A DNA stretch of 64,000 nucleotides, taken from positions 157,760-221,759 of the forward strand of contig CAVOYH010000004.1 of the NCBI GenBank assembly GCA_963700635.1, read 5' to 3'. Shown here piece after piece: positions 3,826 to 32,454 of this stretch. This stretch comes from an uncultured Bacteroidota bacterium. GTDB taxonomy: Bacteria; Bacteroidota; Ignavibacteria; UBA10030; UBA6906. The position numbers were made by a program, and so were the translations under genes. The notes under the pieces were generated by a model, which had not been told where the DNA came from, made no database searches, and saw nothing but the letters and a program-made list of their open reading frames with translations. Within the stretch, counting starts at the first letter, position 1. The number at the start of each line of letters is the position of its first letter.

Positions 3826-3827
3826 CG

Positions 3828-14028: not shown

Positions 14029-14035
14029 GCTACTC

Positions 14036-14064
14036 TTGCATATGGCCACACGGTTCGTTATATT
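14036..14064 (+). promoter_or_regulatory. Sigma-70-like promoter TTGCAT-N17-TATATT upstream of plsY-gpsA
   Basis: -35 at 14036-14041 and -10 at 14059-14064, 38 nt before the plsY ATG. One of five sites in the window that match the same motif. Confidence 0.4.
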
Positions 14065-14101
14065 TTGACCGACGTGTCCGATCACAACAGCGTAAAAGGT
14101 T

Positions 14102-14798
14102 ATGATTCCTATTAGTATTATCGCCATCCTGAGTTACCTCATCGGGTCGATCCCCACGAGTATTATTGTGGCTCGCAAAGCCCGGGGGATAGATATCCGG
14201 CACTACGGCAGCGGGAACGCCGGCGGGACGAATGTGTTCCGTGTGCTGGGATGGAAGGCCGGGGTGTTCGTGATCTCTCTGGATATGGCGAAGGGACTGA
14301 TCGCGACAATGTTTGTGGCGCGGTTGATGGAGGGCGCCGATTCCCTTTTCGAATGCCACCCCTTTTGATGATTTTACCGTTGTCCAGATCATTGCGGGTT
14401 GTTCTGCGATTCTCGGACACATCTGGACGGTTTTTGCGGGGTTCAAGGGCGGGAAAGGTATCGCAACGGCCGGCGGCATGCTCATCGGTATTGCGCCTGT
14501 TGAAGTCGCAGTTTCGTTCGGCGTGTTTGCCATCGTCTTCCTGCTCACACACTACGTGTCCCTGGGTTCGCTCAGCGCTGCCGTTGCATTCCCTCTGACG
14601 ATGTTCTTCCGTGAAAACGTGTTTATGGTCGATGTCCCCGGCTACGGCACGCTCATCTTCTTCTCAATCGGCATTTCATTATTGATCATTTTTACCCATC
14701 GATCCAACATCGTCCGGCTTCTGCGAGGCAATGAGAACAGGATCGCTTCGATCCGGCCCTTCCGAAAGAAGGAAGAGCGGACCTCGCACGCCGGCTAA
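14102..14798 (+). pseudogene. plsY: Glycerol-3-phosphate acyltransferase PlsY, interrupted as sequenced by a +1 frame change
   Basis: ORF 14102..14368 carries GSGNAGGTNVFRVLG. The frame that contains ORF 14478..14798 is open from 14328 and encodes AILGHIWTVFAGFKGGKGIATAGG. The frame switch must lie in 14328-14368, a region containing tttt and cccc runs. Confidence 0.8.
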
Positions 14799-14812
14799 CT
14801 CCTTCGGCGGAC

Positions 14813-15814: not shown

Positions 15815-15861
15815 TGTAAACGGGAGAATATCAGGAATCAGTAGGGCAATCAGCTGCCAGG

Positions 15862-15905
15862 AAAAAAAAAGAGAAGAACGACAGTCGTTCTTCTCTTTCC
15901 GTTTA
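15862..15905. terminator. Bidirectional intrinsic terminator between convergent gpsA and hppA
   Basis: A9 tract (15862-15870), then stem agagaagaacg / cgttcttctct (15870-15880 / 15886-15896), then T-rich sequence. On the minus strand the hairpin is followed by U9. Confidence 0.65.
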
Positions 15906-15959
15906 TGGCATATCGGTCGTGGTGTTACCGCCCGACCGGGCGCGGTGCCGGTATTCCCG

Positions 15960-18128
15960 TCAGATGAACAGAGGGGCAAGCACCAGGGTAATCGTGCTCA
16001 GAAGCTTGACCAGCACGTGGAGCGATGGACCCGCAGTATCCTTAAACGGGTCGCCGACCGTGTCACCCACCACTGACGCCTTGTGCGGATCGGAACGCTT
16101 TCCTCCGTACACGCCGGTTTCGATATACTTCTTTGCGTTATCCCACGCCCCGCCGCTGTTGTTGAGGAACAGGGCGACGAGGATACCGACGATTGTTCCG
16201 ACCATAAGGAAGCCGCCAACCACTTCGGCGCCGGTAGCGCCCGTGGGCGGAGCCCCTGTGGCATAGTAGAACCACCGGAACACCAACCCCACAGCCACCG
16301 GAAGAAGGACCACGAGGAGCCCCGGGGCGATCATTTCCTTGAGGGCTGATTTTGTCGCGATATCAACACACTGACCATAATCCGGTTTTGAAGTTCCCGC
16401 CATGATTCCCGGATTATTCTTAAACTGCTCCCGCACGTTGTTGATGATTGCCTGTGCCGCTTTACCCACAGCTTTGATCGCGAGAGAGGAGAACAGAAAT
16501 ACGAGAACTGCCCCCAGCATCGCGCCGACAAACACTTCGGGTTTGTTCAGATTGATGACCGGCTCAAAGGACGGCATATACGCACGGACTTCGTCAATAT
16601 ACGCGCTGAAGAGCAGGAAGGCAGCAAGTGCTGCCGAGCCCACCGCATAACCCTTTGTAAGCGCTTTGGTGGTATTTCCGACGGAGTCGAGACGATCGGT
16701 CCGGTCGCGGACTTCTTTGGATTGCTGGCTCATCTCCACGATGCCGCCTGCATTGTCGGTGATGGGCCCGAAGGTGTCCATGGCGAGGATATAGGCCGCT
16801 GTGGACAGCATGCCCATCGTTGCGACTGCGGTGCCGAAGAGACCGGCATGCTCGAGTCCGGAACTTGCCCCGAGAAAGTAGGATCCAATGATCGCTGCCG
16901 CAATGACGAGTACCGGAATACCGGTGGATTCCATACCGATTGCGATGCCGCTGATGATATTTGTCGCCGGGCCGGTTTGTGATGATTCAACGATGGACAG
17001 CACCGGGCGGTAGCGGTAATCGGTATAGTAGATCGTGATAAGCACAAACGCGAGCGCTGTCAGGACCCCCACCATCCCGCACAGGAAGAAATTGAAGTAG
17101 AATTCGGGACCCAGGAGCCAGCGGGATGCGATGTAGAATCCGATCATTGCCAGGACGGTGGTCACGTAGTATCCCCGGTTCAGCGCCTTCATCGGATCTT
17201 CGGTATCGGTAGTGCGAACGATCAGGATACCGACCATGGACGCGATAATACCAAAGGCGCGAGCAACGAGGGGGAAGAGCAGGACCCCGATGAGCGTAAG
17301 TTCGTGTTCGGCAAAGAGCGAGGCATTGGCGCGATACAGTCCGGCCGCAAGAATCATGGCGCCGATATTTTCAGCGGCGGTTGATTCGAACAAATCGGCT
17401 CCACGGCCTGCGCAATCCCCGACATTGTCACCCACAAGATCCGCAATCACGGCGGGGTTCCGGGGATCGTCTTCGGGTATGCCGGCTTCCACTTTTCCCA
17501 CGAGATCAGCACCCACATCTGCTGCCTTTGTGAAAATACCACCTCCCAGCTGTGCGAAGAGGGCGACAAAGCTGGCGCCGAATCCGTATCCCACGATGAG
17601 CAGCGGAATTTTTGAGATGTCTTCAGTGACGCCGGAAGCGCTGACCAAGGCAAAGAGTCCGGCCACACCCAGCAGGCTCAGGGCAACCACAAAGAATCCG
17701 GATGCGGCACCCCCGCGAAGGGCAGGCTGGAGCGCGCTGTTCATGTTCTTCATGGCACCGGCCGCGGTGCGGATGTTGGATCGGATGGCGACCCACATGC
17801 CCATGTACCCGGCGGCCACGGAACACGCGGCGCCGAAGACAAACGAGACGGTCGTCCACAACGCAAGGGCGCCGGGACCTGCGGGATCATGTTCATGATG
17901 TGCACGGGCGAATGCATACAGAATATAGATCAGACAGGCCAGGGCAATGGAGAGATAGATGATGGTGCGATACTGACGGGCAAGGAAGGCTTCTGCACCG
18001 GCCTTGATCGCATCCGAGATTTCACGCATCTTCTCGCTGCCGGTCTCGCGTCGGAGCACATTGCCGATCAGGTATAGTGCGAACAACAGCCCAAGAACAC
18101 TGATACCGATAATGAGGGTGAGTTCCAT
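15960..18128 (-). CDS. hppA: Membrane H+-translocating pyrophosphatase, K+-independent type
   Basis: 722 aa, multi-TM. Motifs DNVGDCAGRGADLFES and VGDTVGDPFKDTAGPS. The GNTTKALTKG signature (Lys/Thr variant) marks K+-independent H+-PPases. Confidence 0.93.
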   Translation of the reverse strand: MELTLIIGISVLGLLFALYLIGNVLRRETGSEKMREISDAIKAGAEAFLARQYRTIIYLSIALACLIYILYAFARAHHEHDPAGPGALALWTTVSFVFGAACSVAAGYMGMWVAIRSNIRTAAGAMKNMNSALQPALRGGAASGFFVVALSLLGVAGLFALVSASGVTEDISKIPLLIVGYGFGASFVALFAQLGGGIFTKAADVGADLVGKVEAGIPEDDPRNPAVIADLVGDNVGDCAGRGADLFESTAAENIGAMILAAGLYRANASLFAEHELTLIGVLLFPLVARAFGIIASMVGILIVRTTDTEDPMKALNRGYYVTTVLAMIGFYIASRWLLGPEFYFNFFLCGMVGVLTALAFVLITIYYTDYRYRPVLSIVESSQTGPATNIISGIAIGMESTGIPVLVIAAAIIGSYFLGASSGLEHAGLFGTAVATMGMLSTAAYILAMDTFGPITDNAGGIVEMSQQSKEVRDRTDRLDSVGNTTKALTKGYAVGSAALAAFLLFSAYIDEVRAYMPSFEPVINLNKPEVFVGAMLGAVLVFLFSSLAIKAVGKAAQAIINNVREQFKNNPGIMAGTSKPDYGQCVDIATKSALKEMIAPGLLVVLLPVAVGLVFRWFYYATGAPPTGATGAEVVGGFLMVGTIVGILVALFLNNSGGAWDNAKKYIETGVYGGKRSDPHKASVVGDTVGDPFKDTAGPSLHVLVKLLSTITLVLAPLFI

Positions 18129-19949: not shown

Positions 19950-20165
19950 AGTCTTCTCTTACTCCGGTACCCTCTCCGGGAGATCGTCCGGCTACGGACG
20001 GCGAGAGGTGATTTTTCACGCGGGATCGTTGCCTGCAGGTGGACTGCCCGACAACAATCAGAAGCGTGTACTTCGTGAGAGCAATGATGGGTCTGAGCAT
20101 TACCGTGGTGTGTCGTTCAGCGGGGTTCGGGTGCGTTGATTCATTTTCTCTACGTTCATGCCGTT

Positions 20166-20819
20166 TTACGGTACGTGTGTAGTGTCCTGCGCATCAACCG
20201 GCACCGGAGTACTCTTTCCTTTTTCCGACCGGTGCTGGAGGTACTTGATGATTATAGGGAGAATAGACAAAAACACGACAACAATGATCACGTATTCGAT
20301 ATGCCGTTCGATGCCCGGGATCACACGCCCGAGAAAGTACCCTGTGAGCGTCATGCTCGTCACCCACCCGATTCCGCCCGTGATATTAAAGAGAGCGAAC
20401 CGGCGATACTTCATCTCTGCCACTCCCGCCACAACAGGCGCGAATGTACGGGCGAAGGGCATAAAACGGGCGATCACAATTGTGATGCCGCCGTATTTAT
20501 CGTAGAATGCCCTGGTCTTGATGAGGTGATCGCGACGGAACCAGCGGGATTGGGGGCGGCTGTAGAGGGTATGACCAGCTTTGAGTCCGATGTAGTAGCC
20601 CGTGGCATCACCCGCAATAGCCGCGAAGATCAGGAGAACATTGAGGAGCACGATATCCATCTGACCACGCGCGGCAAAAAGTCCCGCGGTGACAAGGAGT
20701 GAGTCGCCAGGCAGAAAGAACCCGATCAACAGTCCGGTCTCGGCAAAGATGATTGCAAAAAGGCCGATGTAACCTCCCCAGATAACAATCTCTTCAAGCG
20801 TCGGCAGTTGTTCGAGCAC
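20166..20819 (-). CDS. DedA-family membrane protein
   Basis: 217 aa. AETGLLIGFFLPGDSLLVTAGLFAA and FIARFMPFARTFAPVVAG blocks. GTG start. Confidence 0.85.
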   Translation of the reverse strand: MLEQLPTLEEIVIWGGYIGLFAIIFAETGLLIGFFLPGDSLLVTAGLFAARGQMDIVLLNVLLIFAAIAGDATGYYIGLKAGHTLYSRPQSRWFRRDHLIKTRAFYDKYGGITIVIARFMPFARTFAPVVAGVAEMKYRRFALFNITGGIGWVTSMTLTGYFLGRVIPGIERHIEYVIIVVVFLSILPIIIKYLQHRSEKGKSTPVPVDAQDTTHVP

Positions 20820-21061
20820 ACGTCCTCGGGTTTTTGGCTATTGGGACAAGATACAACCTTTGGTGAAAAGACACAACGTCAAAGTAGCCCGCTTGCGTGT
20901 CGATGAGCACCATCGTATCTTCTCTGACGGGGGTTCTCCCCGCAGTTTGTGTTCGTACAAATCTTCCGAGTCTGGGGAACATGCCGGCGCGGGCGTTATG
21001 GGCTGTGTTCTGCCGGACGGATATTCACTCTGTACTGGAAACGTGTTATGATACGATCCCT

Positions 21062-23293
21062 ATGACTACCCCGGGACATACAACAGTGCTGAGCAGGCCT
21101 GTACAGTTTGTCAAGGGGGTGGGGCCGAAAAAGGGTCAAGCCCTGAGTGTGGTCGGCATCACCTCAGTCGGGGACCTCCTGATGTACGTGCCGCGGCGGT
21201 ACCTCGACCGCACCACGGTTGCGACAATTGCACAGGTTCGGGGGATGACACAGCCGGACAATGCCTTGCCGGACACAGATGTCCGGCGTGAAGCGACTGT
21301 TCTGGGAGACGTTCGTTCCTTCCGGGTCCTCGGAGCCGGGCGCAGGGCCCGCTTTGTCCTGGTCCTCGGCGATGCCACGGGCTCTCTGCAGTGCGTCTGG
21401 TTTGGAGCCGTACACTACTGGAAGTCACGTTTCAAGATCGGCGACAGTCTCGCGGTGTCGGGGCAGCCCTCCCTTTTCGGCGCGGTGCTGCAGATGGTCC
21501 ATCCCGATGTGGATTGGATTGAAGGTCGCGCGGGGGAGGAACGCGACGGGACCACAGAAGGTGGCCTTGTACACGGTGACGGGCTTATCCCGCTGTATGC
21601 AAGCACACAGGAGCTGGCGCGGGTGGGACTCGACAGCGGAGGATTCCGGCGGCTGCTTGCGCATGTGATCCGTGAAGTTCTGGAAACCGTTGTGGATCCG
21701 CTTCCCGAAAGCCTTTTACACAAACATCGTCTGCTCCCGTTACGCGATGCCCTTCGTACTGTACACTTTCCCAAGACGGGCACCGACATTGCAGAGGCGT
21801 TGCGCCGGCTCAAGTACCAGGAGCTGTTTGAATTTCAGCTGAAGCTGGCTCTCCAGCGGAACCGGGCCAAACAGGAATCCAGAGGGATCACCTTTGCTGT
21901 GCAAAGCAAGCTGGCCCGTCAGTTTGTGGACGGTCTCCCCTTTGTGCTGACTTCTGCGCAGGTGAAAGTGGTACGGGAAATTCTGGACGATATGGGATCC
22001 CCGCAACCGATGCACCGGCTTCTCCAGGGCGACGTCGGAAGTGGCAAGACCGTGGTTGCGCTCACGGCAATGCTGATCGCTGTGGAAAATGGTTATCAAG
22101 CGGCGTTTGTAGCCCCGACTGAAATTCTAGCGGAGCAGCATTTCCGGACAATGCGGGCGCTCCTCGGGGCTCTTCCCGTACACCATCGGCTTCTTGTGGG
22201 AGCACAACGGTCGGCCCTGCGTCGTGATGTTCTCGAAGATATCCGTTCCGGTGCCGCCCAGATTGTTGTCGGCACACATGCGGTATTCGAAGAGGATGTT
22301 GTGTTTGCGCGTCTGGGGTTGGCCGTGATTGATGAGCAGCACCGGTTTGGAGTGTTGCAGCGTGCGCGTATCCGCAAGAAGGGGGAGCATCCGGATGTGC
22401 TGATCATGACCGCGACGCCGATTCCCCGGACACTCTCGCTGACACTGTACGGGGATCTGGATGTGTCCGTCATCGAAGCGCTTCCGGAGGGCCGCCGTCC
22501 GATCCGTACCCTTCTGAAGTATGATGATGAGAAGGAAAGCGTCTATCAGTTTGTGCGGGAGCAGGTGTCGGCTGGCCGTCAGGCCTATTTTGTCTACCCC
22601 CTGGTTGAGGAATCCGAGGTGCTGGACCTTAAGGCGGCCACCGTGCACGTTGAGCAGCTGCAACGGGACGTCTTTCCGGCATTACGGCTGGGACTCCTGC
22701 ACGGTCGGCTCAGCGCCGAGGAAAAAGACGGCGTCATGCAGCGGTTTGTAAGCCGGTCCCTGGATATCCTTGTGGCGACCACGGTGATAGAGGTGGGGAT
22801 TGACGTGGCGAATGCAACCGTCATGGTCATCGAAAATGCCGAGCGGTTTGGTTTGTCGCAGTTGCATCAGCTCCGCGGCCGGGTGGGACGCGGGAGCGAC
22901 CAGTCGTATTGTATCCTCATGACGCAGCGCTGGATTGCCCGCCGTGCGGCACGGGTCCGGGCGGCGGGAGATGATCAGGCAGCGCTTGAACAGTATCGTG
23001 CAGCGGAGCGACGGCTCGCGACCATGGTACGTACGACGGACGGATTTGAGATTGCGGAGGCTGATCTCGAGTTGAGGGGGCCCGGTGACTACTTCGGGAC
23101 CCGACAGAGCGGCATCCCGGAGTTTCGCGTGGCGAATCCGGTGCTCGACGTCGCGCTCCTCTCGTCAGCGCGTGATGATGCCTTCGCGATCGTCGCCGAC
23201 GATCCATCTCTCCGTCATGAGGCGCATCGACTCCTCGCAGAGCATCTCCGCTCCCGGTTCGAGAAGGAGACGACGCTGATACAAACTGGATGA
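21062..23293 (+). CDS. recG: ATP-dependent DNA helicase RecG
   Basis: Wedge-domain N-terminus PVQFVKGVGPKKGQAL..DLLMYVPRRY, helicase motifs GDVGSGKT and DEQHRFG, and a C-terminal TRG-type region. The start is placed at ATG 21062; the tracked ORF from 20897 adds 55 non-homologous residues. Confidence 0.9.
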   Translation: MTTPGHTTVLSRPVQFVKGVGPKKGQALSVVGITSVGDLLMYVPRRYLDRTTVATIAQVRGMTQPDNALPDTDVRREATVLGDVRSFRVLGAGRRARFVLVLGDATGSLQCVWFGAVHYWKSRFKIGDSLAVSGQPSLFGAVLQMVHPDVDWIEGRAGEERDGTTEGGLVHGDGLIPLYASTQELARVGLDSGGFRRLLAHVIREVLETVVDPLPESLLHKHRLLPLRDALRTVHFPKTGTDIAEALRRLKYQELFEFQLKLALQRNRAKQESRGITFAVQSKLARQFVDGLPFVLTSAQVKVVREILDDMGSPQPMHRLLQGDVGSGKTVVALTAMLIAVENGYQAAFVAPTEILAEQHFRTMRALLGALPVHHRLLVGAQRSALRRDVLEDIRSGAAQIVVGTHAVFEEDVVFARLGLAVIDEQHRFGVLQRARIRKKGEHPDVLIMTATPIPRTLSLTLYGDLDVSVIEALPEGRRPIRTLLKYDDEKESVYQFVREQVSAGRQAYFVYPLVEESEVLDLKAATVHVEQLQRDVFPALRLGLLHGRLSAEEKDGVMQRFVSRSLDILVATTVIEVGIDVANATVMVIENAERFGLSQLHQLRGRVGRGSDQSYCILMTQRWIARRAARVRAAGDDQAALEQYRAAERRLATMVRTTDGFEIAEADLELRGPGDYFGTRQSGIPEFRVANPVLDVALLSSARDDAFAIVADDPSLRHEAHRLLAEHLRSRFEKETTLIQTG

Positions 23294-23309
23294 AAAGTTC
23301 ACTTTTTTC

Positions 23310-23337
23310 TTGACACAGATGCAGAATTGCTTATATT
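23310..23337 (+). promoter_or_regulatory. Near-consensus promoter TTGACA-N16-TATATT for the ATP-grasp/GNAT/kamA operon
   Basis: -35 at 23310-23315 and -10 at 23332-23337, 17 nt after the recG stop and about 75 nt before the GTG start at 23413. Confidence 0.45.
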
Positions 23338-23412
23338 AACCTGCAAGACAATTGAGTTTCACTACACGGACTGTTTCTGGTACCTCCTCATACAGCGCTT
23401 CCATCGACTGCG

Positions 23413-24531
23413 GTGACGATCGCATTGACCTACAACGTCAAGATGGAAGCAGGTTCTCTCCCTTCGACAACTCCCGATCAGGCAGCAGGCCCTTCATCCG
23501 ACGCCGCTCTCGTTTTGTCCGTGGCGCATGCCGAACGCAAACACGATCTGTACGCCGAGTGGGATACACTGGACACCATTCACGCGGTGCGCGACGCGCT
23601 TGCGGAACGGTTCACCGTTGAATTGGTTGAGGCCAATGCCGATGCCTTCGAACGTTTGCGAACCATGCGACCGACTTTTGTGTTCAATATTGCGGAAGGT
23701 CTTGTGGGCGTATCACGCGAGGCGCAGCTTCCGGCAATGTTGGAATTGTTGCAGATCCCGTATCTCGGTTCTGATCCGCTGACGCTGGCGCTGTGTCTGG
23801 ACAAGGGACGGACCAAGGAGGTGCTTGCGCATCATGGAGTACGCACGGCACCCTTTGTGATGATTTCGTCGATGGAGGAACTGGACGATGCCCGTGTGCG
23901 CTTCCCGCTGATTGTAAAACCGCTTCATGAAGGATCGAGCAAAGGGATTTACAATTCGTGCGTTGCGCGCAACAGTGAAGAACTCGAAAGGGAAGTGAAG
24001 ACGATTCTCGAGACGTACGATGAACCAGTGCTTGTGGAGGAATTTCTTGCGGGAAGGGAGTTTACCGTTGCCGTGCTCGGGAACGGGAACCAGCTCACGG
24101 TTCTCCCCATAGTGGAGATCTCATTTTCAGCGTTACCCGAGGGGATGAATCCCATTTACTCCTATGAAGCGAAATGGATCTGGGACAAGGCGGAGAACCC
24201 GCTTGAGATTTTTTCCTGTCCGGCACACCTTCAGGAATCACTTGCCGAAGAGATCCGTGCGCTGTGTACGCGCACGTACCGGGTATTACGGTGCCGTGAT
24301 TGGTCGCGGATAGACGTCCGTCTTGACGGAGAGGGGCGTCCGCATATTTTAGAAGTAAATCCGTTGCCGGGTATACTTCCCCGGCCGGAAGACAATTCCT
24401 GTTTTCCGAAGGCAGCGCGGGCGGCGGGTATGACGTACGCGCAGTTGATAAATAGAGTGCTTGACATTGCGATGGCGCGCTGCGGTATCGTGGTCAGGGA
24501 ACAACAAATCATGCACGACCAGATACAATAA
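23413..24531 (+). CDS. ATP-grasp ligase, D-Ala-D-Ala-ligase-like (paralogue 1)
   Basis: 372 aa, GTG start. ATP-grasp blocks FPLIVKPLHEGSSKGI, EEFLAGREFTVAVLG, and CRDWSRIDVRLDGEGRPHILEVNPLPG. Lacks the Ddl N-terminal GGxSxEhxVS motif. Confidence 0.8.
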   Translation: MTIALTYNVKMEAGSLPSTTPDQAAGPSSDAALVLSVAHAERKHDLYAEWDTLDTIHAVRDALAERFTVELVEANADAFERLRTMRPTFVFNIAEGLVGVSREAQLPAMLELLQIPYLGSDPLTLALCLDKGRTKEVLAHHGVRTAPFVMISSMEELDDARVRFPLIVKPLHEGSSKGIYNSCVARNSEELEREVKTILETYDEPVLVEEFLAGREFTVAVLGNGNQLTVLPIVEISFSALPEGMNPIYSYEAKWIWDKAENPLEIFSCPAHLQESLAEEIRALCTRTYRVLRCRDWSRIDVRLDGEGRPHILEVNPLPGILPRPEDNSCFPKAARAAGMTYAQLINRVLDIAMARCGIVVREQQIMHDQIQ

Positions 24532-24541
24532 CGGATATCTC

Positions 24542-25663
24542 ATGGGAAAAAAATTACGAATTTCTATTCTTTTTAACGAACCAGCGGTCAGCGATGAAAA
24601 TCTGCAAAAACTCGTCACAGAGAACGGGCAGATCAGAAGCGATCCGGATGCTCTATTAAAGAAGCTCGCGGCGGAAAGAACACCACGTTCCCGAAAACCG
24701 CCTCCTTCTGTCGATCTGTCTGAACTTGGCGTTATCGAGGAAATGGAAGATATCAAGATCGCCCTCGATTCCCTCGGATACAAAACCTCCATTACGAACG
24801 TCAACAGTGATGTGTACAGACTGATTGACTACCTCAGGGAAGAACGACCGGATATTATCTTCAATCTGGTGGAATGTGTCGAAAACGAATCCCTGCAGGA
24901 AATGAATGTGGCGGGACTGTACGACCTCCTGAAGATTCCGTATACCGGAGCAGGACCTCTTGCACTGGGTACGGCCCTCAACAAACCGCGCGTGAAGGAA
25001 ATTCTGACCTATCACGGCATCCGCACGCCCGACTACCAGGTCTTCCGCGCCCAGGATCGTATCGTGCTCAAAGAAGGGCTCACGTTTCCGCTGATCGTAA
25101 AACCATCACATGAAGATGGCAGCGTGGGAATTTCCGATCTGTCGATCGTCAACAACCTCAGCGAGCTCCGCAAACGTGTTCGGTTTATTCATGCAGAGTT
25201 TGAACAACCCGCCCTGGTGGAGCAGTACATCCTCGGCCGTGAGATGAACGTCGCCATCCTCGGCTCGTTACGTCCGCAGGTCCTCCCGATCTCCGAAATT
25301 GATTTCTCCGGGCTGCCCGCGGATATGCACAAGATTGTCAGTTATGAGGCAAAGTGGATGCACGGCACTGCCGCCTATGAAGGAACTCGCGGTGTCTGTC
25401 CGGCCAAGCTGACTGCGCGCCAGGAGGGGGAGATGAAACGCACTGCGCTCACCTGCTTCCAGTTGATCGGGTGCAGGGACTATGCCCGCATCGATTTCCG
25501 CCTGACTCCTGAAGGAGTGCCGTACGTGCTGGAAGTCAACCCGAACCCGGATATTTCCGATGACGCAGGCTTCGCACGATCAGCCCGCGGTGCGGGGTAT
25601 TCATTCCCTGAGGCAATAGGGAAAATCGTAGAATCGGCGGTCGAACGATGGCAGTCGAGGTAG
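24542..25663 (+). CDS. ATP-grasp ligase, D-Ala-D-Ala-ligase-like (paralogue 2)
   Basis: Start placed at ATG 24542 (MGKKLRISILFNEP), 10 nt after the upstream stop. Collinear with paralogue 1: FPLIVKPSHEDGSVGI, EQYILGREMNVAILG, CRDYARIDFRLTPEGVPYVLEVNPNPD. Confidence 0.8.
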   Translation: MGKKLRISILFNEPAVSDENLQKLVTENGQIRSDPDALLKKLAAERTPRSRKPPPSVDLSELGVIEEMEDIKIALDSLGYKTSITNVNSDVYRLIDYLREERPDIIFNLVECVENESLQEMNVAGLYDLLKIPYTGAGPLALGTALNKPRVKEILTYHGIRTPDYQVFRAQDRIVLKEGLTFPLIVKPSHEDGSVGISDLSIVNNLSELRKRVRFIHAEFEQPALVEQYILGREMNVAILGSLRPQVLPISEIDFSGLPADMHKIVSYEAKWMHGTAAYEGTRGVCPAKLTARQEGEMKRTALTCFQLIGCRDYARIDFRLTPEGVPYVLEVNPNPDISDDAGFARSARGAGYSFPEAIGKIVESAVERWQSR

Positions 25664-26157
25664 TCACGGGAACCATACGGGCGCTCCGGCCGGCAGACCG
25701 TGAACCATTACATCGTCTGCTCGAACAAACCGGTGTCTTCACAGACGACGAGATCGGGATCGCCCTCGAACTGATCGATACGGTCCTGCAAAAACCGGAG
25801 CAGAAGGACTATGAGATCGCCGTGTACGATGATGGCTCAGGCCCTCTCGGGTATACGTGTATTGGTCCAACACCCGGAACGGACGGGACGTACGATCTGT
25901 ACTGGATAGCCGTTGCTCCCGCCCTGCACGGACGGGGTATCGGACGTGAACTCGATGCGCATGTCGGATCCACGGTGCGCGCGCGTCACGGACGCTTGAT
26001 TGTCGCGGAGACCTCATCCACCCCGCGATACAACACAACACGGATGTTTTATCAGCGCTGTGGCTACACTGAGCTTGCCCGCATCCCCGGATACTACCGG
26101 CAGGGCGACGATCTTGTAGTCTACGGCAAGTATCTTGTCTCACAAGTAGGAGCGTGA
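25648..26157 (+). CDS. GNAT-family N-acetyltransferase
   Basis: 169 aa. Acetyl-CoA loop WIAVAPALHGRGIGREL, and a C-terminal YQRCGYTELARI block. Overlaps the upstream ligase by 16 nt. Confidence 0.75.
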   Translation: MAVEVVTGTIRALRPADREPLHRLLEQTGVFTDDEIGIALELIDTVLQKPEQKDYEIAVYDDGSGPLGYTCIGPTPGTDGTYDLYWIAVAPALHGRGIGRELDAHVGSTVRARHGRLIVAETSSTPRYNTTRMFYQRCGYTELARIPGYYRQGDDLVVYGKYLVSQVGA

Positions 26158-26166
26158 CAGTCACGC

Positions 26167-27312
26167 ATGGAACTCTGGCAGGAAATGCTTAGGCAGAGTG
26201 TAGATAGCTCCAAAGACCTGGTTGAACGTTTTGGCTTTAATGAGGAACTCTCCGAGAAACTCAACCGGCTGTTTCATATCCGGATCAACCCGTACTATCT
26301 CAGCCTGATCCGGTACCCGGGAGATCCCATCTGGCTCCAGTGTATCCCGGATGCCAAGGAACTGGAAGAAGATGGTCTTCCGGAAGATCCTCTCGCAGAG
26401 GACTCACACAGTCCTGTGCCAAGCATCGTACACCGATATCCGGACCGGGTGCTCTTCCTCACGACGAGCCAGTGTTCGATGTACTGTCGGTTCTGCACAC
26501 GCAAGCGGAAAGTCGGCGATTCGAGCAAAATCAACATGAAGTTTATTCAGGGCGGTATCGATTACATCGCTGCGCATCCCGAAGTGCGTGATGTGATCAT
26601 GTCCGGCGGTGACCCGCTGATGCTTACGGACTTCATGCTGGAAAAAATTATCTCGGGTCTGCGCGCGATTCCCCATGTCGAGATTATCCGCCTGGGCACA
26701 AAAATGCCCTGCGTGCTCCCGCAGCGGATCACTCCCAAACTCGTGAAGATGCTCAAGAAGTATCATCCGATCTATATCAATACGCACTTTAACCATCCAT
26801 GGGAATGTACCACGGAAGCCAAACGGTCCTGCGAGCTTATCGCGGATGCCGGCATTCCCCTGGGTAACCAGGCCGTCCTGATGAAGGGTGTGAACGACGA
26901 TCCGGATGTGATGCTCGAACTTATGCGCAAATTGCTCACCATGCGCGTGCGGCCGTACTATCTCTATCAGGCCGATATTACCAAGGGGGCGAATCACTTC
27001 CGTGCTCCGGTCAGCGTCGGACTCGACATCATGGATAAGCTCCGGGGTCATACCTCAGGTCTGGCCATTCCGCATTTTGTGATCGACGCGCCAGGCGGTG
27101 GGGGCAAAATCCCGCTTCTGCCGCAATACGTCCTGGGCAGGAACGGAAATCAGATCATCATGCGCAACTATAAATACGACATCTTTACCTACCCGGACGT
27201 CGAGGAAGACCCAAAAATTCCGACTCCGACAGTCGAGCGCCGGTTCACCCGGAAGAAAAAAGGCCCGCGCCGGCTTATGCGCCGGATGAGGCAGGGGTGT
27301 AGGGGGGGGTGA
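26167..27312 (+). CDS. kamA: Lysine 2,3-aminomutase (KamA-family radical SAM enzyme)
   Basis: 381 aa. CSMYCRFCTRKRKVG radical-SAM cluster motif, VIMSGGDPLML, and YYLYQADITKGANHFR. Basic C-terminal tail that ends in a G8 run directly before the stop. Confidence 0.9.
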   Translation: MELWQEMLRQSVDSSKDLVERFGFNEELSEKLNRLFHIRINPYYLSLIRYPGDPIWLQCIPDAKELEEDGLPEDPLAEDSHSPVPSIVHRYPDRVLFLTTSQCSMYCRFCTRKRKVGDSSKINMKFIQGGIDYIAAHPEVRDVIMSGGDPLMLTDFMLEKIISGLRAIPHVEIIRLGTKMPCVLPQRITPKLVKMLKKYHPIYINTHFNHPWECTTEAKRSCELIADAGIPLGNQAVLMKGVNDDPDVMLELMRKLLTMRVRPYYLYQADITKGANHFRAPVSVGLDIMDKLRGHTSGLAIPHFVIDAPGGGGKIPLLPQYVLGRNGNQIIMRNYKYDIFTYPDVEEDPKIPTPTVERRFTRKKKGPRRLMRRMRQGCRGG

Positions 27313-27366
27313 CGTAGCCGGGAAGATCTGCCGGCAAGGCTGATCGATACGGTGATGCTGGATAAG

Positions 27367-27415
27367 AAACCGCCGGGTGGCGAGAGACACTACCCGGCGG
27401 TTTTTTTCTTTTTTT
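27367..27415 (+). terminator. Rho-independent terminator of the kamA operon
   Basis: Stem aaaccgccgggt (27367-27378) pairs with acccggcggttt (27392-27403), 9 G/C-rich bp. Followed by tttttttctttttt. Confidence 0.78.
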
Positions 27416-27451
27416 CCCGAATCCACCGCACGGCTTCAGGACCCAAGCCAG

Positions 27452-27480
27452 TTGCCTCCGTATCCGGCTTTCCGTAGATT
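27452..27480 (+). promoter_or_regulatory. Candidate promoter TTGCCT-N17-TAGATT directly in front of dnaG
   Basis: The -10 ends at 27480, and the dnaG ATG is at 27487. This predicts a leaderless or near-leaderless transcript. Confidence 0.3.
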
Positions 27481-27486
27481 ATCCCT

Positions 27487-29346
27487 ATGCGTATTCCCGA
27501 GACGACCATTGATGAGATCCGCAACGCAACCGACATCGTCGAGGTGATCGGTGCCTATGCCCGATTAAAAAAGCGCGGCAAGAACTACATCGGACTCTGT
27601 CCGTTCCATCAGGAAAAAACCCCGTCGTTTACTGTCAGCGCCGAGAAACAGATGTTCCATTGCTTCGGTTGCGGCGTGGGCGGGAATGTGTTCACATTTT
27701 TGATGGAGCACGACAAACTTTCGTTCATAGAAGCGGTTCGCACACTTGCCGACCGCGCCGGAATCCGGTTGCCCGAAGAGGGAAGAGACGACCGGGAGGA
27801 AATCACCGAACAGGAGAAGCTCCTGAGCCTCTGCCGCGCTGCAGCTCTCCGGTTTCATGACAACCTGATGACAAGCGTTGAGGGAAGCATCGCCCGGGAG
27901 TATTTTCGTCACCGGGGCCTCACCGATGCGACCATTGCAGCATTCGGCCTGGGGTATTCGATGAACTCCTGGGATGATTTCCTCTCCTATGCACGGCGGG
28001 AGGGGTTTGACCCGGTGTACCTCGAGAAGGCGGGATTGATCGTGCGCCGTGACGACGGATCCGGGTTTTACGACCGGTTCCGCGGGCGAGCGATGTTTCC
28101 GATTTTCTCGCCGACCGGCCGCCCGATCGCCTTCGGCGCCCGGAAGGTGCGCGAGGACGACCCGCTTGCCAAATATATCAATTCGCCGGAAACGCCGGTG
28201 TATAACAAGAGCCGGGTATTATATGGTCTCTCCCAGGCAAAAGACGCCATCCGCGACAAGGATTTTGCGCTGCTCGTGGAGGGCTATATGGACCTCATCA
28301 CACTTCACCAGGCAGGCTTCCAGCATGTTGTGGCATCCAGCGGTACGGCGTTAACGACGGAACAAATTCAATTGCTGGGCCGGTACACAAAACACATTAC
28401 GCTTGTCTATGACGCCGACTCTGCCGGCTCAAAAGCCGCACTGCGGGGTGGAGATCTGGTTCTGGAACAGGATATTGATGTTCGTGTGGCCGAACTCCCT
28501 GCAGGCGAAGACCCGGACTCCTTTATCCGGAAGCAAGGACCAAAGGCGTTCCAGGCTATACTTGACGGCGCGGTGTCATTTCTTGAATTCCGGGCCATTC
28601 AGCTTGAAGCGGCGGGCGCGTTTTCCACGCCGGATGGGAAGGCGCAGGCAATCCGAACCCTGGTAGAGACGGTTGCGCGGATGCGAGATGAACTGAAGCG
28701 GACCTTTTTTATCAAGCGTCTGGCGGAGCAGTACGATATCTACGAAAGTGTGTTGTTCCGCGAACTGGAAAGCGTGCTCGGAAAGCAACAACAGGCGAGC
28801 AGGGTTGAGCGAAACATCCCGCGCTCTGCTCCGGCGGAGACCCCGCCGCCAGCTCACCGCGTGGTGCAGAACCAGAGTATCCCACCTGCCGAACGGGACC
28901 TTCTGAAACTGATGCTTGAACACGGCAGTGCCATGGTGCGTTACGTTCGGGAACTGATCGATCCTGCACAGTTCACATCCACGACCGCCCGGTCGATCCT
29001 TGCCGTGCTTCTGGATCACGACGAGGCGGGGGAATTCTGGGATGCCGGTATGATTATGGATGATCTGCAGGATGCCTCGCTGAAACGTATCGTGACGGAA
29101 CTGATGATCTCGCGCTATGAGATCAGCAAGGGCTGGCAGGAAATGGGTTCTGAACCTGCGCTGCCCGACCCGCGGAGCATGGCGTCTGACTGTATCGCCA
29201 GGATGCAGCTTCTCTCTCTGGACGAGCGTATTGCGGAAACGTATCGTCTGATGAAAGACTCTGAGCTGCGGGGGGAAGACAGCACGGAGTTCCAGCAGGA
29301 GATTATGCGGATGCAGCGGGCCAGGAAGGATGTGCGGGGGCGTTGA
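27487..29346 (+). CDS. dnaG: DNA primase
   Basis: Zinc-ribbon CPFHQEKTPSFTVSAEKQMFHCFGCGVGGNVFTF and TOPRIM LVEGYMDLITLHQAG...VYDADSAG. Confidence 0.92.
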   Translation: MRIPETTIDEIRNATDIVEVIGAYARLKKRGKNYIGLCPFHQEKTPSFTVSAEKQMFHCFGCGVGGNVFTFLMEHDKLSFIEAVRTLADRAGIRLPEEGRDDREEITEQEKLLSLCRAAALRFHDNLMTSVEGSIAREYFRHRGLTDATIAAFGLGYSMNSWDDFLSYARREGFDPVYLEKAGLIVRRDDGSGFYDRFRGRAMFPIFSPTGRPIAFGARKVREDDPLAKYINSPETPVYNKSRVLYGLSQAKDAIRDKDFALLVEGYMDLITLHQAGFQHVVASSGTALTTEQIQLLGRYTKHITLVYDADSAGSKAALRGGDLVLEQDIDVRVAELPAGEDPDSFIRKQGPKAFQAILDGAVSFLEFRAIQLEAAGAFSTPDGKAQAIRTLVETVARMRDELKRTFFIKRLAEQYDIYESVLFRELESVLGKQQQASRVERNIPRSAPAETPPPAHRVVQNQSIPPAERDLLKLMLEHGSAMVRYVRELIDPAQFTSTTARSILAVLLDHDEAGEFWDAGMIMDDLQDASLKRIVTELMISRYEISKGWQEMGSEPALPDPRSMASDCIARMQLLSLDERIAETYRLMKDSELRGEDSTEFQQEIMRMQRARKDVRGR

Positions 29347-29376
29347 TATTCAGCCGGAACGGGGGTATATTGTGGT

Positions 29377-30471
29377 GTGACGCACCCGGAGCCCCTTCTG
29401 TTGAGTGAACCTCAGAGAATTCTCATAGTCCGCACCGATCGCCTCGGTGACGTCATTCTTACCCTTCCGATGCTTGCCCTCCTGCGATCACGCTACCCGA
29501 CGGCAGTTCTGGGGATGCTCCTGAGCACCTATACCGGCCAGCTTGTGCGTGGACACCGCCACGCGGACACGCTCATCTGGTACGATCGCGACGGTGTGCC
29601 TCGTCCGGCCCGTGAACTCCTCCGCGAAATCCACAGTCATCAGTTCGATACGGTGTTTGTGGTACATCCGACACCACGCCTTGCATGGCTCATGTATCGT
29701 GCAGGAATTCCGGTGCGCATTGGAACCGGGTACCGTTTCTACTCGTTTTTGTTCACGAAGAGGGTATTTGAACACCGGAAGGATGCGAGGTTTCACGAGC
29801 TTGAATACAATGTTCGACTCCTCAAGGTCCTGGATCCCGAATTTACGGAAGAGGGACTACAACCAGATTTTGGTATCACAGTCGATCCCGGAGCGGTCGC
29901 GGGTGTGCAGAGCCGGCTGGCTGAGCTCGGAGTCCGGCCCGGTGAACGCCTGGTGGTCCTTCACCCGGGCAGCGGGGGATCTGCCAGAGACTGGCCCCTG
30001 GAGAGGTTTGCTCTCCTGGGGGGACGTCTGGCCCACGATGAGGGTGTGCGGCTGGTCGTAACCGGAGGTAAAGGGGAGGAGTCCGTCACCCGAAATCTGG
30101 CGGATCGTGTAGGGGGTGCTACGGTCTCTTTCTCAGGTACGCTCACGCTTCCGGAATTGGCGGCGCTTCTGGCGCAGGCCTCGCTGGTGGTGGCGAATTC
30201 CACAGGCCCCCTTCATCTTGCCTCCGCCCTGGGCACGCCTGTGGTGGGAATCTACCCCCAGCTGACCGCGATGAGTCCGCGCCGCTGGGGACCGTATGGA
30301 CCTGTGAAAAGAGTGCTTGTCCCGGCTGAACCGGCGGATTGCCGGAAATGCCGGAACGGCAAGCGTTGCACCTGCATGGACACGATCTCCGTGGACGAGG
30401 TGTACGATGTTTCACAAGAGATACTTCAACAGACTTCGAACCAGGGAAGGCGGAACAGTGCACATGCGTAA
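29377..30471 (+). CDS. Glycosyltransferase family 9 (LPS heptosyltransferase-like)
   Basis: GTG start. ILIVRTDRLGDVILTLPM N-terminus and ANSTGPLHLASALGTPVVGIY C-terminal block. Confidence 0.8.
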   Translation: MTHPEPLLLSEPQRILIVRTDRLGDVILTLPMLALLRSRYPTAVLGMLLSTYTGQLVRGHRHADTLIWYDRDGVPRPARELLREIHSHQFDTVFVVHPTPRLAWLMYRAGIPVRIGTGYRFYSFLFTKRVFEHRKDARFHELEYNVRLLKVLDPEFTEEGLQPDFGITVDPGAVAGVQSRLAELGVRPGERLVVLHPGSGGSARDWPLERFALLGGRLAHDEGVRLVVTGGKGEESVTRNLADRVGGATVSFSGTLTLPELAALLAQASLVVANSTGPLHLASALGTPVVGIYPQLTAMSPRRWGPYGPVKRVLVPAEPADCRKCRNGKRCTCMDTISVDEVYDVSQEILQQTSNQGRRNSAHA

Positions 30472-31471
30472 GTTTGCCCGATCAGAGTTTATGCCTCGTT
30501 TGGTACGACGGGTGCTCCCTCTGGTTCTCGTAACAGCAGGTATCGTGTTCTTTCTTGCTGCACAAACGCAAAAGACAACCCGAAAGCCTGTTCGCCCCGC
30601 CAGCCGTGCACAGGCTGCGGCAGCCAGGGCTGACAGCCTCAGACGGTTACACATTGCAGATTCGCTTCGCACCGTTGCACGCGCTGCATTTGTTGCTGAT
30701 TCGGCGCGAACGGCGGATTCTCTTGTTCTTCATCAGGCGGCGCTCCAGCGCGCCTCCACCTTTCGCACGATTCGTAATGAGGCTTTCGGTGTGGGCGAAC
30801 GGTTGGTGTTTGATGTGAATTTCGGATTCATCACGGCCGGCGAAGCCGTGATGGCCGTCGCCCGGTTTGATTCAGTCGCCGGGCGCAAGTGTTTCCGGAT
30901 CGAGTTCTCGGTCAATTCACTCCCCAGTTTCTCCTGGATTTACAAGGTGGAAGATCGGTATCTCACGTTTATTGATGTTGAATCAATCGCGCCCTGGCGG
31001 TTCGAGCAACATATCCGTGAAGGATCATACGTGCGCGATTTTGTGGCCGATTTTGACCATCGTAATAAGGTCGCCAGAACTACCGAGGGAGAATTTCCTA
31101 TCCCTCCGTATGTGCATGATATCCTCTCCGCGTTCTACTATGCGCGCACGGTGGATTACACAGGCCTGAAAACAGGCGACACGCTGATGCTCCATAACTT
31201 CTACAAAGACAAAAGTTACGAGCTCGTGATCAGGGTCCTGGGCCGGCAGGAACTTGAAGTGGGAGCAGGGACCTTCCGCACCATTGTGGTAGAGCCGCTC
31301 GTGAAAGAAGGCGGGCTGTTCAAGAGTGAGGGACGGATCGTGATCTGGTTGACCGATGACGAACGGAAGATCCCCGTCCGTGTGAACACGAAAGTCATCA
31401 TTGGTTCCATTGATACAGAACTCCGGGAGTACTCCGGCATCGCAGGGCAGCTTCGTGCCCGGATCCGTTGA
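30464..31471 (+). CDS. DUF3108-family protein with an N-terminal signal anchor
   Basis: Start placed at ATG 30464 (MRKFARSEFMPRLVRRVLPLVLV). GERLVFDVNFGFITAGEAVMAV...VHDILSAFYYAR...IVIWLTDDERKIPVRV matches the DUF3108 pattern. Confidence 0.72.
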   Translation: MRKFARSEFMPRLVRRVLPLVLVTAGIVFFLAAQTQKTTRKPVRPASRAQAAAARADSLRRLHIADSLRTVARAAFVADSARTADSLVLHQAALQRASTFRTIRNEAFGVGERLVFDVNFGFITAGEAVMAVARFDSVAGRKCFRIEFSVNSLPSFSWIYKVEDRYLTFIDVESIAPWRFEQHIREGSYVRDFVADFDHRNKVARTTEGEFPIPPYVHDILSAFYYARTVDYTGLKTGDTLMLHNFYKDKSYELVIRVLGRQELEVGAGTFRTIVVEPLVKEGGLFKSEGRIVIWLTDDERKIPVRVNTKVIIGSIDTELREYSGIAGQLRARIR

Positions 31472-31494
31472 CAGAAGTTCAGACAGGAGATAGT

Positions 31495-32454
31495 ATGGTA
31501 CGACATCCGCGCGCCGATCTCTCACGGGTCCGGACAATATCCATCCGGGCGCGGAAGAGCAAGGTAACACCTGAGCAGTTCGCTGTTCCCTTCCAGAAGG
31601 ACAAGGATTCCTTTGCCCGTTTTGTCAAGGGCATGCCGGACATTCTCGTAGCACGGGATTTGCGCCTTCTGGTGGACGACATTGTGCGCAGCGCGCGCAA
31701 ACGGAAGCCGGTGGTTGTCATGATCGGGGGACACGTCATCAAGGTGGGCCTTGCGCCGGTCCTCATCGATCTGATGCGCCGCAAGGTCATAACCGCCGTG
31801 GCAATGAACAGCGCCGCGGCGATTCACGATGTGGAAACTGCGCTCTGGGGAAAAACATCGGAAGATGTGGCGGCGAACATGATGGATGGCCGGTTTGGCA
31901 TGGCGAGGGAGACAGCGGAATTTATCAACGGGACGCTTCTGGAGGCCAGCCGCGGGCCGGATCAGGGGTATGGTGAGGCCCTCGGAGCCAGACTGGCTGC
32001 GGTAAAAGCACAATACCGGAAGGTCAGCCTTCTTGCAAGTGCCTATACCCTGGGCATTCCGGCCACCGTGCATGCTGCGATTGGAACCGATACGATTCAT
32101 CAGCAGCCGACGATGGACGGTGGCGTCACCGGGGAGATGTCGTTCCGGGACTTCCGGACTCTCTGCGCAGTGTGCGGGCGGCTTACAAAAGACGGGGTAG
32201 TGCTCAACATAGGGAGCGCAGTGATCCTGCCGGAAGTGTTCCTCAAGGCACTGACGGTGGCCCGCAATCTGGGTGCGCGTGCGAAGGGGTTTACAACCGC
32301 GGTGTTTGACATGAACGCCCATTATCGACCCACGATGAATGTCCAACGTCGTCCCACACAGGATGGAGGAAAGGGGTTGTACATCATCGGGCATCACGAG
32401 ATCATGGTGCCCTTGCTCGGCGCAATGATCGTTTCCAGAATGCGCCATGAGTAA
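31495..32454 (+). CDS. Hypothetical protein with weak deoxyhypusine-synthase-fold resemblance
   Basis: ATG 31495 is preceded by AGGAGA (31485-31490). PVVVMIGGHVIKVGLAPVLIDLMRRKVITAVAMNSAAAIHDVE resembles the DHS nucleotide-binding core. I could not find an equivalent of the catalytic Lys. Confidence 0.35.
   Translation: MVRHPRADLSRVRTISIRARKSKVTPEQFAVPFQKDKDSFARFVKGMPDILVARDLRLLVDDIVRSARKRKPVVVMIGGHVIKVGLAPVLIDLMRRKVITAVAMNSAAAIHDVETALWGKTSEDVAANMMDGRFGMARETAEFINGTLLEASRGPDQGYGEALGARLAAVKAQYRKVSLLASAYTLGIPATVHAAIGTDTIHQQPTMDGGVTGEMSFRDFRTLCAVCGRLTKDGVVLNIGSAVILPEVFLKALTVARNLGARAKGFTTAVFDMNAHYRPTMNVQRRPTQDGGKGLYIIGHHEIMVPLLGAMIVSRMRHE

Follow-up and report, generated by a model that had tools for sequence, protein, structure and literature searches.

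Four genes packed on one strand of a 64,000 nt stretch of DNA from an uncultured Ignavibacteria-type Bacteroidota bacterium (contig CAVOYH010000004.1 of assembly GCA_963700635.1, positions 157,760 to 221,759, hereafter the window) encode two D-alanine–D-alanine ligase (Ddl)-like ATP-grasp carboxylate-amine ligases (Lig1 and Lig2), an acetyltransferase of the GNAT family and a KamA-family aminomutase using radical S-adenosylmethionine (SAM) and pyridoxal phosphate (PLP). On balance, we favour the reading that this module makes an acetylated, beta-lysine-containing amide metabolite. The module couples beta-amino-acid metabolism to ATP-grasp peptide ligation, and is a widespread, coherent and uncharacterised combination of familiar enzyme families. 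The reading is built on the linkage of the four genes across phyla, on the fusion of Lig2 to the GNAT in many GNAT-family representatives, and on the active-site residues conserved in the aminomutase and the two ligases.

Linkage of the four genes across bacterial phyla

A scan with a Lig1 alignment, using one genome per species, gave at least 586 confirmed matches, and the best 80 loci were retrieved. Most of these come from Ignavibacteria-type Bacteroidota metagenome-assembled genomes (MAGs), and a small number bear the label Desulfuromonadales, Thermodesulfobacteriota or Acidobacteriota. The four genes were present in the same order, Lig1-Lig2-GNAT-KamA, in 80/80 retrieved loci wherever the contig allows. 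RecG upstream and DnaG downstream were kept only within Ignavibacteria-type genomes, and the Desulfuromonadales loci have unrelated flanks that include, among others, Hsp90, PEPCK, a YkuD transpeptidase and toxin-antitoxin pairs. De novo clustering of the open reading frames (ORFs) in the flanks of 83 loci gave no further conserved partner gene; all that it recovered was the synteny of RecG, DnaG and glycosyltransferases that the Ignavibacteria-type genomes have in common. Two loci with Ignavibacteria-type synteny carry the labels 'Synechococcus sp. UW140' (L060) and 'Chitinophaga pinensis' (L066); these MAG contigs were probably mislabelled or assigned to the wrong bin.

A search from the GNAT of solved structure 2R7H provided an independent entry to the module, and led to versions with other gene orders. 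A Desulfovibrio/Oleidesulfovibrio-type contig (L084) has the order KamA-Lig1-Lig2-GNAT, while three Gammaproteobacteria or unlabelled contigs (L087-L089) carry a complete KamA-Lig1-Lig2-[GNAT-like plus deacetylase fusion]-GNAT arrangement. The layout in Woeseia (L085) is similar, but its second ligase is only a fragment, and a truncated spirochaete contig has Lig2-GNAT at its cut end. As the four genes recur in other orders, their linkage outlasts gene-order change across phyla, and according to the organism labels of the records the module spans at least four bacterial phyla. The gene-neighbourhood survey proposed in an earlier note on this DNA has thus linked kamA to the ligases not only in the 80 related loci, but also in every complete context reached via the GNAT in other phyla. 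There is one Lig1-type and one Lig2-type ligase per locus, and the two types form separately conserved orthologous groups, which suggests that the ligase duplication is ancient and that the two enzymes have distinct jobs. Cultured carriers of the module are Geoalkalibacter halelectricus, G. ferrihydriticus, Desulfuromonas versatilis and a Desulfovibrio/Oleidesulfovibrio strain. In L084 KamA is immediately preceded, in the same orientation, by a gene for a sigma-54-dependent activator (2874-4310), which suggests regulated rather than constitutive expression in that organism.

The GNAT, its fusion to Lig2 and a deacetylase in other lineages

Profile searches with the GNAT, as called for in the earlier note, returned matches to the generic Pfam families Acetyltransf_7, Acetyltransf_1 and Acetyltransf_10, in line with its description there as a GNAT of 169 amino acids (aa). 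The complete list of NCBIfam matches (E ≤ 0.01) has two entries, rimI with 28.8 bits and a generic GNAT model with a lower score, both below cut-off, and contains no match to the AblB family; the gammaproteobacterial orthologue scored 50.5 bits with rimI, again below cut-off. The solved orthologue is 2R7H (E = 5e-35), of which the entry title, 'Putative D-alanine N-acetyltransferase of GNAT family', is a structural-genomics guess at function. A protein 99% identical to 2R7H sits in the KamA-Lig1-Lig2-GNAT cluster of a Desulfovibrio-type organism, which differs from the window operon in having KamA first.

A search with the GNAT of 1.84 billion representative sequences gave 94 clusters (at 50% identity) with E ≤ 1e-30. 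Among the 149 best representatives of the GNAT family, 35 are single chains in which a Lig2-type ATP-grasp domain precedes the GNAT (for example P0372, P0379, P0368 and P0415). These fusions are approximately 490–620 aa long, mostly ~490–545 aa with one of 624 aa, and a few shorter entries look truncated. The fusions constitute Rosetta-stone evidence, and indicate that Lig2 and the GNAT work on the same molecule.

Several loci contain, within or beside the module, a protein of ~580 aa with a weak GNAT-like N-terminal part and a deacetylase C-terminal domain (L071, L083 and L087-L089, Table 1). The deacetylase domain is closest to the acetylpolyamine amidohydrolases (E = 6e-73), which act on N-acetylated aliphatic amines. 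It was found in Desulfuromonadales-type and gammaproteobacterial loci and is a frequent fifth component of the proteobacterial versions, and no homologue of this histone deacetylase/acetylpolyamine amidohydrolase (HDAC/APAH) fusion was present in the 64-kb window. Transporter genes were also seen in some lineages, with a small DMT_6 membrane protein inside the module of L089 (5848-6204) and MFS transporters beside the module in L088 (732-2171) and L089 (8582-10114), a hint that these lineages may transport the product. In Desulfuromonas versatilis (L083) the module is followed downstream by a separate cluster (11994-17080) for a circularly permuted ATP-grasp protein, an Alpha-E protein and a DUF2126 protein, which is probably unrelated.

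The aminomutase retains the residues of a lysine 2,3-aminomutase

The KamA-family protein aligns with the Clostridium lysine 2,3-aminomutase 2A5H with E = 2.5e-120 and carries the motif CSMYCRFCTRK, as expected for the KamA-type radical-SAM aminomutase described in the earlier note. Residues C125, C129, C132, R134, D293, D330 and K337 were invariant in all 80 cluster-linked KamA orthologues. The three cysteines belong to the radical-SAM CxxxCxxC (Fe-S) motif. In 2A5H, Asp293 and Asp330 are the residues that bind the epsilon-ammonium group of lysine, and they are replaced in glutamate 2,3-aminomutase; Lys337 is the PLP lysine, and Arg134 binds the carboxylate. The Zn-site residue Cys268 has been lost, with D, N or S at this position in 80/80 orthologues, and the C-terminal tail has no CxCxxC motif; the Zn site of the clostridial enzyme consists of Cys268 and C-terminal cysteines.

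The protein passed the broad KamA model TIGR00238 (296.7 bits, cut-off 199.2), while the best-scoring NCBIfam model, the AblA equivalog TIGR03820, was not reached (462 bits, cut-off 525.4), nor was the EpmB model TIGR03821 (235.1 bits, cut-off 369.3). Its active-site residues make lysine the likeliest substrate. Across the related loci the conservation of KamA is very strong, at 78–94% identity. At its C-terminus (~27190-27312) it has a Lys/Arg-rich tail (VERRFTRKKKGPRR), of which the basic character, as compared in L002-L080, is kept in the Ignavibacteria-type orthologues and is absent in Desulfuromonadales.

Two Ddl-like ligases with altered substrate pockets

Over a stretch of 311 residues, Lig1 and Lig2 share 36% identity (E = 1e-64), and all the sequence blocks by which the earlier note had recognised them as collinear paralogues occur in both. 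Both match the Pfam family Dala_Dala_lig_C (PF07478; E = 6e-41 for Lig1 and 3e-33 for Lig2), so the ATP-grasp/Ddl catalytic half described in the earlier note is present in both, and neither matches the Pfam Ddl N-terminal family (Dala_Dala_lig_N). Their public annotation is D-alanine--D-alanine ligase and the closest solved relatives of both are true Ddl enzymes. The best NCBIfam model, NF002378, gave 200.1 bits for Lig1 and 161.9 bits for Lig2 versus a cut-off of 243, and both proteins scored far below the cut-off of all other NCBIfam Ddl and Van models.

The NCBIfam Ddl alignments of the ligases begin at profile position 25–30. The AlphaFold2 model of Lig1 has a mean predicted local distance difference test score (pLDDT) of 85, and its best fold match in the PDB is DdlB (Foldseek E = 6e-26). 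In the Foldseek comparisons 354–366 columns of the Lig1 model align with DdlB-type chains of ~305 residues, with template modelling (TM) scores of 0.81–0.84 on the target, and because the model superposes on DdlB over ~360 columns, a Ddl-like N-terminal domain is present in Lig1. The profile and structure searches proposed for the ligases thus gave a Ddl fold with sub-threshold Ddl family scores. Residues 12–36 of Lig1 (window 23446-23520) form a low-complexity insert, predicted to be disordered, which directly follows the first beta-strand and replaces the GGxSxE loop. Hence, the statement in the earlier note that the Ddl N-terminal site is missing holds for the GGxSxE loop, but not for the N-terminal domain itself. 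A comparable extra stretch was seen in the sequence of Lig2 (~24575-24720).

The residues of 84 Lig1-type and 90 Lig2-type sequences were surveyed in an alignment with E. coli DdlB, the numbering of which is used here. K97, K144, E180, E187, K215, R255, D257, E270 and N272 are kept in at least 93% of both ligase families, and nearly all of them in 100% of Lig1. The ATP, Mg and catalytic roles of these residues are known from Ddl. The departures from Ddl common to Lig1 and Lig2 are I60N, H63E, R202E, Y216W and M259R, while G149D, T189N, W253Y, S274N, G276D and S281A are specific to Lig2. The D-Ala-binding set H63, S150, Y216, S281 and L282 is altered, with S150A/G in Lig2, and these changes are kept across orthologues; H63, Y216 and L282 are substituted in all ligase orthologues, with position 282 being G in Lig2 and C in Lig1 in a narrower alignment (76/72 orthologues). 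If the residue roles of Ddl transfer to Lig1 and Lig2, the retention of the ATP, Mg and transition-state residues together with the swapped pocket residues suggests that both are active ligases, distinct from each other, with pockets that are predicted to be more acidic than in Ddl, most of the replacements being by acidic residues.

Operon structure and transcription signals

The four genes are preceded by a sigma-70-like promoter and followed by an intrinsic terminator (Table 1). The gap between Lig1 and Lig2 is 10 nt, Lig2 and the GNAT gene overlap by 16 nt, and the gap between the GNAT gene and KamA is 9 nt, in agreement with the four tightly packed same-strand ORFs of the earlier note. 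The stop codon of Lig1 is TAA (24529-24531), and the most plausible start of Lig2 is the ATG at 24542. We placed the start of Lig1 at the GTG at 23413, since the strand TIALTYNVK that follows is kept in homologues and is confidently modelled. The public Lig1 gene call is a 362 aa protein starting at Met11, which omits this conserved N-terminal beta-strand (window 23413-23442), and the same truncation may affect several Lig1 homologues listed at ~320 aa, which cover only ~85% of the query.

The promoter matches 11/12 consensus positions and is the top promoter-like site in a 10-kb scan (20000-30000). An alignment of the upstream regions showed the -35 and -10 hexamers to be invariant across seven related loci, in otherwise variable intergenic DNA. 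A block in the 5′ untranslated region (5′ UTR) is also kept in these loci and could be an operator, or else a signal for translation, and the 5′ UTR alignment of related loci displayed no conserved RNA fold. The Rfam scan of the window detected no riboswitch or leader, with a tRNA elsewhere in the window being the sole match. The terminator hairpin folds at -31.5 kcal/mol, compared to a mean of -16.7 kcal/mol for shuffled sequences (z = -5.2), and none of 200 shuffles was as stable; it was not listed on the + strand by a simple terminator scan. The promoter and terminator proposed in the earlier note are therefore both well founded, and the description of the operon as an autonomous unit is borne out by its own conserved promoter and terminator and by the unrelated flanking genes in other lineages.

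The GC content of the operon resembles that of its flanks, and the window is ordinary core chromosome, with genes for SMC, LpxB, PPDK, GpsA, H+-PPase, RecG, DnaG, BamA and CarB. A horizontal-transfer island was rejected on this host-like composition together with the conserved synteny. There was no gene for an exporter, precursor peptide, carrier protein, resistance protein or target protein among the ORFs of the operon, and PADLOC returned no defence-system match for any of its four proteins.

Table 1. Coordinates of the operon, its signals and the deacetylase genes of related loci
Feature	Sequence	Position	Strand	Description
sigma-70-like promoter	window	23310-23337	+	TTGACA-16 nt-TATATT
Conserved 5′ UTR block	window	23367-23384	+	CGGAnnGTTCTGGTACC-like; kept in seven related loci
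Lig1	window	23413-24531	+	372 aa, GTG start; Ddl-like ATP-grasp carboxylate-amine ligase
Lig2	window	24542-25663	+	373 aa, ATG start; Ddl-like ATP-grasp ligase, paralogue of Lig1
GNAT acetyltransferase	window	25648-26157	+	169 aa
KamA-family radical-SAM/PLP aminomutase	window	26167-27312	+	381 aa; probably lysine 2,3-aminomutase
Intrinsic terminator	window	27367-27415	+	GC-rich hairpin and T-tract
Deacetylase fusion	L071	6510-8231		
Deacetylase fusion	L083	5891-7636		
Deacetylase fusion	L087	6269-8011		
Deacetylase fusion	L088	6268-8004		
Deacetylase fusion	L089	6250-7980		
Deacetylase	L085	6505-8001		498 aa, no GNAT-like match

A proposed pathway to an acetylated beta-lysine amide

From these observations we infer the substrates, the order of the steps, the product and its physiological role as follows. 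The four genes would form one constitutively promoted operon for a complete cytoplasmic pathway to an N-acetylated beta-lysine amide (a pseudopeptide). The earlier note had put forward, likewise as a hypothesis, a di- or tripeptide with beta-lysine or a capped oligomer. KamA would turn L-lysine into beta-lysine by radical-SAM/PLP chemistry, as its conserved active-site residues suggest. Lig1 and Lig2, on the strength of their intact Ddl catalytic machinery, would then each form an acyl-phosphate with ATP and couple it to an amine, giving two different amide bonds, and their acidic pockets would suit lysine, beta-lysine or other substrates that bear additional ammonium groups. In the last step the GNAT would use acetyl-CoA to acetylate an amine of either the substrate or the product of Lig2, as indicated by its fusion to that ligase. 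In other lineages the co-encoded deacetylase could strip an acetyl group again, so that acetylation could serve as a protecting group or as a turnover switch.

The product would most likely serve as a small solute inside the cell, be it a compatible solute or a metabolite of the polyamine type, in analogy to N-epsilon-acetyl-beta-lysine and N-acetylglutaminylglutamine amide, although our confidence in any specific role is much lower than in the metabolite reading itself. An intracellular small molecule is preferred over a secreted antibiotic, a cell-wall precursor or a peptide that is synthesised ribosomally and modified post-translationally (RiPP), because the operon contains no exporter, carrier, precursor or target gene and its location is core and syntenic. 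The reading of the module as a producer of N-acetylated beta-lysine pseudopeptides as a new class of metabolites, with a built-in acetylation/deacetylation cycle, has a chance that we put slightly short of even, and is more probable than beta-lysylation of proteins.

Several points weigh against the proposed pathway. The identity of the product is a prediction, and the assignment of pocket residues to substrates is built on the DdlB alignment. KamA falls below the AblA cut-off, and the arginine- and glutamate-aminomutase models score substantially, also below cut-off, so that the substrate may be another basic amino acid. Many of the host MAGs are from fens, soils and groundwater and not from saline sites, an origin that does not readily suggest an osmolyte, and the combination of an acetyltransferase with a deacetylase does not suit a simple end-product osmolyte. 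The DMT and MFS transporters in or near some gammaproteobacterial clusters would fit an exported product. The literature search found no description of the four-gene combination, with the amidoligase genomics of Iyer et al. 2009 being outside that search, and an earlier prediction is thus possible.

Alternative explanations

Beta-lysine supplied by KamA could also be destined for a protein. The ATP-grasp ligases would put it, together with a second residue, on a lysine or carboxylate of, for instance, a ribosomal protein or elongation factor P (EF-P), and the adduct would be acetylated by the RimI-like GNAT, in an EpmA-independent counterpart of EF-P beta-lysylation or a modification in the style of RimK and RimI. 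The precedent for this is that RimK (ATP-grasp) and RimI (GNAT) modify ribosomal proteins, and the only NCBIfam matches of the GNAT are the weak rimI match and the weaker generic model, both sub-cut-off. The lack of an exporter and the housekeeping setting between recG and dnaG would be in keeping with such a role, the Lys/Arg-rich tail of the Ignavibacteria KamA could bind RNA or an acidic partner, and the absence of the Zn-site Cys268 may mean that the quaternary structure is unlike that of the clostridial enzyme. However, AblA, with 462 bits, is a much closer model for KamA than EpmB (235 versus a cut-off of 369), the ligases are near the small-molecule enzyme Ddl and not RimK (RimK Pfam E = 0.006, below cut-off), no target-protein gene is linked to the module in any lineage examined, and the deacetylase best resembles small-molecule acetylpolyamine amidohydrolases, which together make modification of a protein unlikely. 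Were beta-lysine attached to proteins by ATP-grasp enzymes, independently of EpmA, this would be a novel form of post-translational beta-lysylation, spread over Ignavibacteria-type Bacteroidota, Desulfuromonadales, Desulfovibrio and some Gammaproteobacteria, and we consider it similarly improbable. A secreted bioactive metabolite containing beta-lysine, be it a small cationic antibiotic peptide, a signal or a compound resembling a siderophore, with the GNAT and deacetylase as a self-protection/activation pair, is doubtful as well. Beta-lysine is present in antibiotics such as the streptothricins, the resistance GNATs of which act on the beta-lysine amine, and acetylation followed by deacetylation is a known pro-drug logic. 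The transporters in or near some gammaproteobacterial versions point the same way, as does the Pbo cluster, in which a KamA-like gene adjoins an ATP-grasp L-amino-acid ligase gene (PMC8473136). This is countered by the absence of a transporter from the window operon and from most loci, by the very strong conservation of KamA, and by the syntenic, apparently vertical core locus of host-like composition in the Ignavibacteria-type genomes, which is atypical for antibiotic clusters.

The module might instead be two unrelated neighbours, with KamA and the GNAT making N-epsilon-acetyl-beta-lysine and the ligases being spare D-Ala-D-X ligases for the cell wall. An aminomutase and an acetyltransferase do suffice for N-epsilon-acetyl-beta-lysine, and the Ddl annotation and the solved Ddl relatives agree with such a division, but it is hard to reconcile with the fusion of Lig2 to the GNAT in 35 of 149 representatives and with the linkage of the four genes despite order changes across phyla. 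In addition, the GNAT fails the AblB model, and the ligases are under every Ddl cut-off, lack the Ddl N-terminal motif and have H63, Y216 and L282 of the substrate site substituted in all orthologues, making two separate functions very improbable. A spare Ddl was rejected as a candidate, as both the score thresholds and the substrate residues fail. Least probable of all is a graspetide (microviridin-like) RiPP, in which two ATP-grasp macrocyclases and a GNAT would act on a ribosomal precursor. Although microviridin clusters likewise pair two ATP-grasp ligases with a GNAT, the operon, with a 5′ UTR of ~70 nt and gaps of ≤10 nt between genes, leaves no space to encode a precursor, the flanks contain no conserved small ORF, the ligases are of the Ddl type with strong Ddl scores, unlike those of graspetide systems, and the residues of KamA for free lysine are conserved. 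The graspetide candidate was rejected, as no precursor gene was found in the operon or flanks.

Comparison with known systems

The abl pathway consists of the KamA-type aminomutase AblA and the acetyltransferase AblB without a ligase, and is found in methanogens and green sulfur bacteria, and as yodP-kamA in Bacillus. The module resembles it in that an aminomutase with lysine-binding residues, of which AblA is the best NCBIfam model, is co-transcribed with a GNAT. It differs in that the aminomutase is below the AblA cut-off and the GNAT belongs to another family, without an AblB match and with 2R7H as orthologue, and in having two always-linked ATP-grasp ligases, one of which is often fused to the GNAT. 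Such a combination of GNAT and ATP-grasp ligase is also seen in the synthesis of N-acetylglutaminylglutamine amide (NAGGN), where the bifunctional Ngg joins the two and yields an N-acetylated dipeptide osmolyte. Lig2-GNAT fusions are common for the module, and the corresponding genes overlap by 16 nt in the window. The ATP-grasp enzymes of the module are Ddl-like, however, and it includes a second ligase and an aminomutase, so the likeness is one of logic, with no sequence relationship demonstrated. There was no Ngg-family name in the complete NCBIfam list of the GNAT (2 families) or among the 25 best models listed per ligase, and no AsnO-type amidotransferase in any locus examined.

Lig1 and Lig2 share with the Ddl and Van ligases the three-domain ATP-grasp fold (TM score up to 0.84) and all the ATP, Mg and transition-state residues, and given the conservation of these residues the acyl-phosphate mechanism should match that of Ddl. 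In contrast to Ddl and Van ligases, they are below all curated thresholds, have an insert in place of the GGxSxE loop and changed D-Ala residues, and are encoded among beta-lysine genes rather than in a mur/fts or van context. In the beta-lysylation of EF-P, the aminomutase EpmB is partnered by the LysRS-like EpmA. As in that system, a KamA-family aminomutase would supply beta-lysine for an ATP-dependent amide bond, but the EpmB model is missed and the module has ATP-grasp ligases in place of EpmA, with no EpmA (LysRS-like) gene in the operon or adjoining it in any locus examined.

The only loose precedent found in the literature is the Pbo cluster of Pseudomonas syringae, where pboF, encoding a KamA-like radical-SAM protein, adjoins pboG, encoding an ATP-grasp L-amino-acid ligase (PMC8473136). 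It shares with the module a KamA-like gene and an ATP-grasp ligase, and its small-molecule product is not established (PMC8473136). The Pbo cluster differs from the module in being a 16-gene island with NRPS-type (non-ribosomal peptide synthetase), KAS III, dioxygenase and MFS genes, in having a single ligase of the BL00235 type, and in that the text of the paper describes no GNAT (PMC8473136). With the AblB, EpmB, Ddl and AblA equivalog models either missed or below cut-off and a negative literature search, the view of the earlier note that the operon does not map to a characterised pathway is upheld.

Other features of the window

Two further ORFs were recorded outside the operon. One encodes a 328 aa protein (31468-32454, + strand), located three genes downstream of dnaG, which has no Pfam match and scores 391.7 bits with NCBIfam NF052581 ('GSU2086 family protein'), an uncharacterised family. 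The other encodes a 491 aa protein (59215-60690, + strand) without a Pfam or NCBIfam match, and lies among polysaccharide-synthesis genes, including a flippase-like Polysacc_synt gene and glycosyltransferases.

Implications

In bacteria, beta-lysine is known to have only a handful of fates, these being N-epsilon-acetyl-beta-lysine, the modification of EF-P, the fermentation of lysine and antibiotics made by non-ribosomal peptide synthetases. The module would add an ATP-grasp route to these, and the implied chemistry is plausible rather than startling. The domain fusions and the optional deacetylase point to one coherent chemistry, and the system is tractable, with a 4-kb gene fragment, cultured hosts and a crystal structure without an assigned function (2R7H). 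Solving the module would correct the annotation of thousands of proteins now named 'D-alanine--D-alanine ligase', and could bring to light a new metabolite, either a compatible solute or polyamine-like, of bacteria that abound in sediment and soil.

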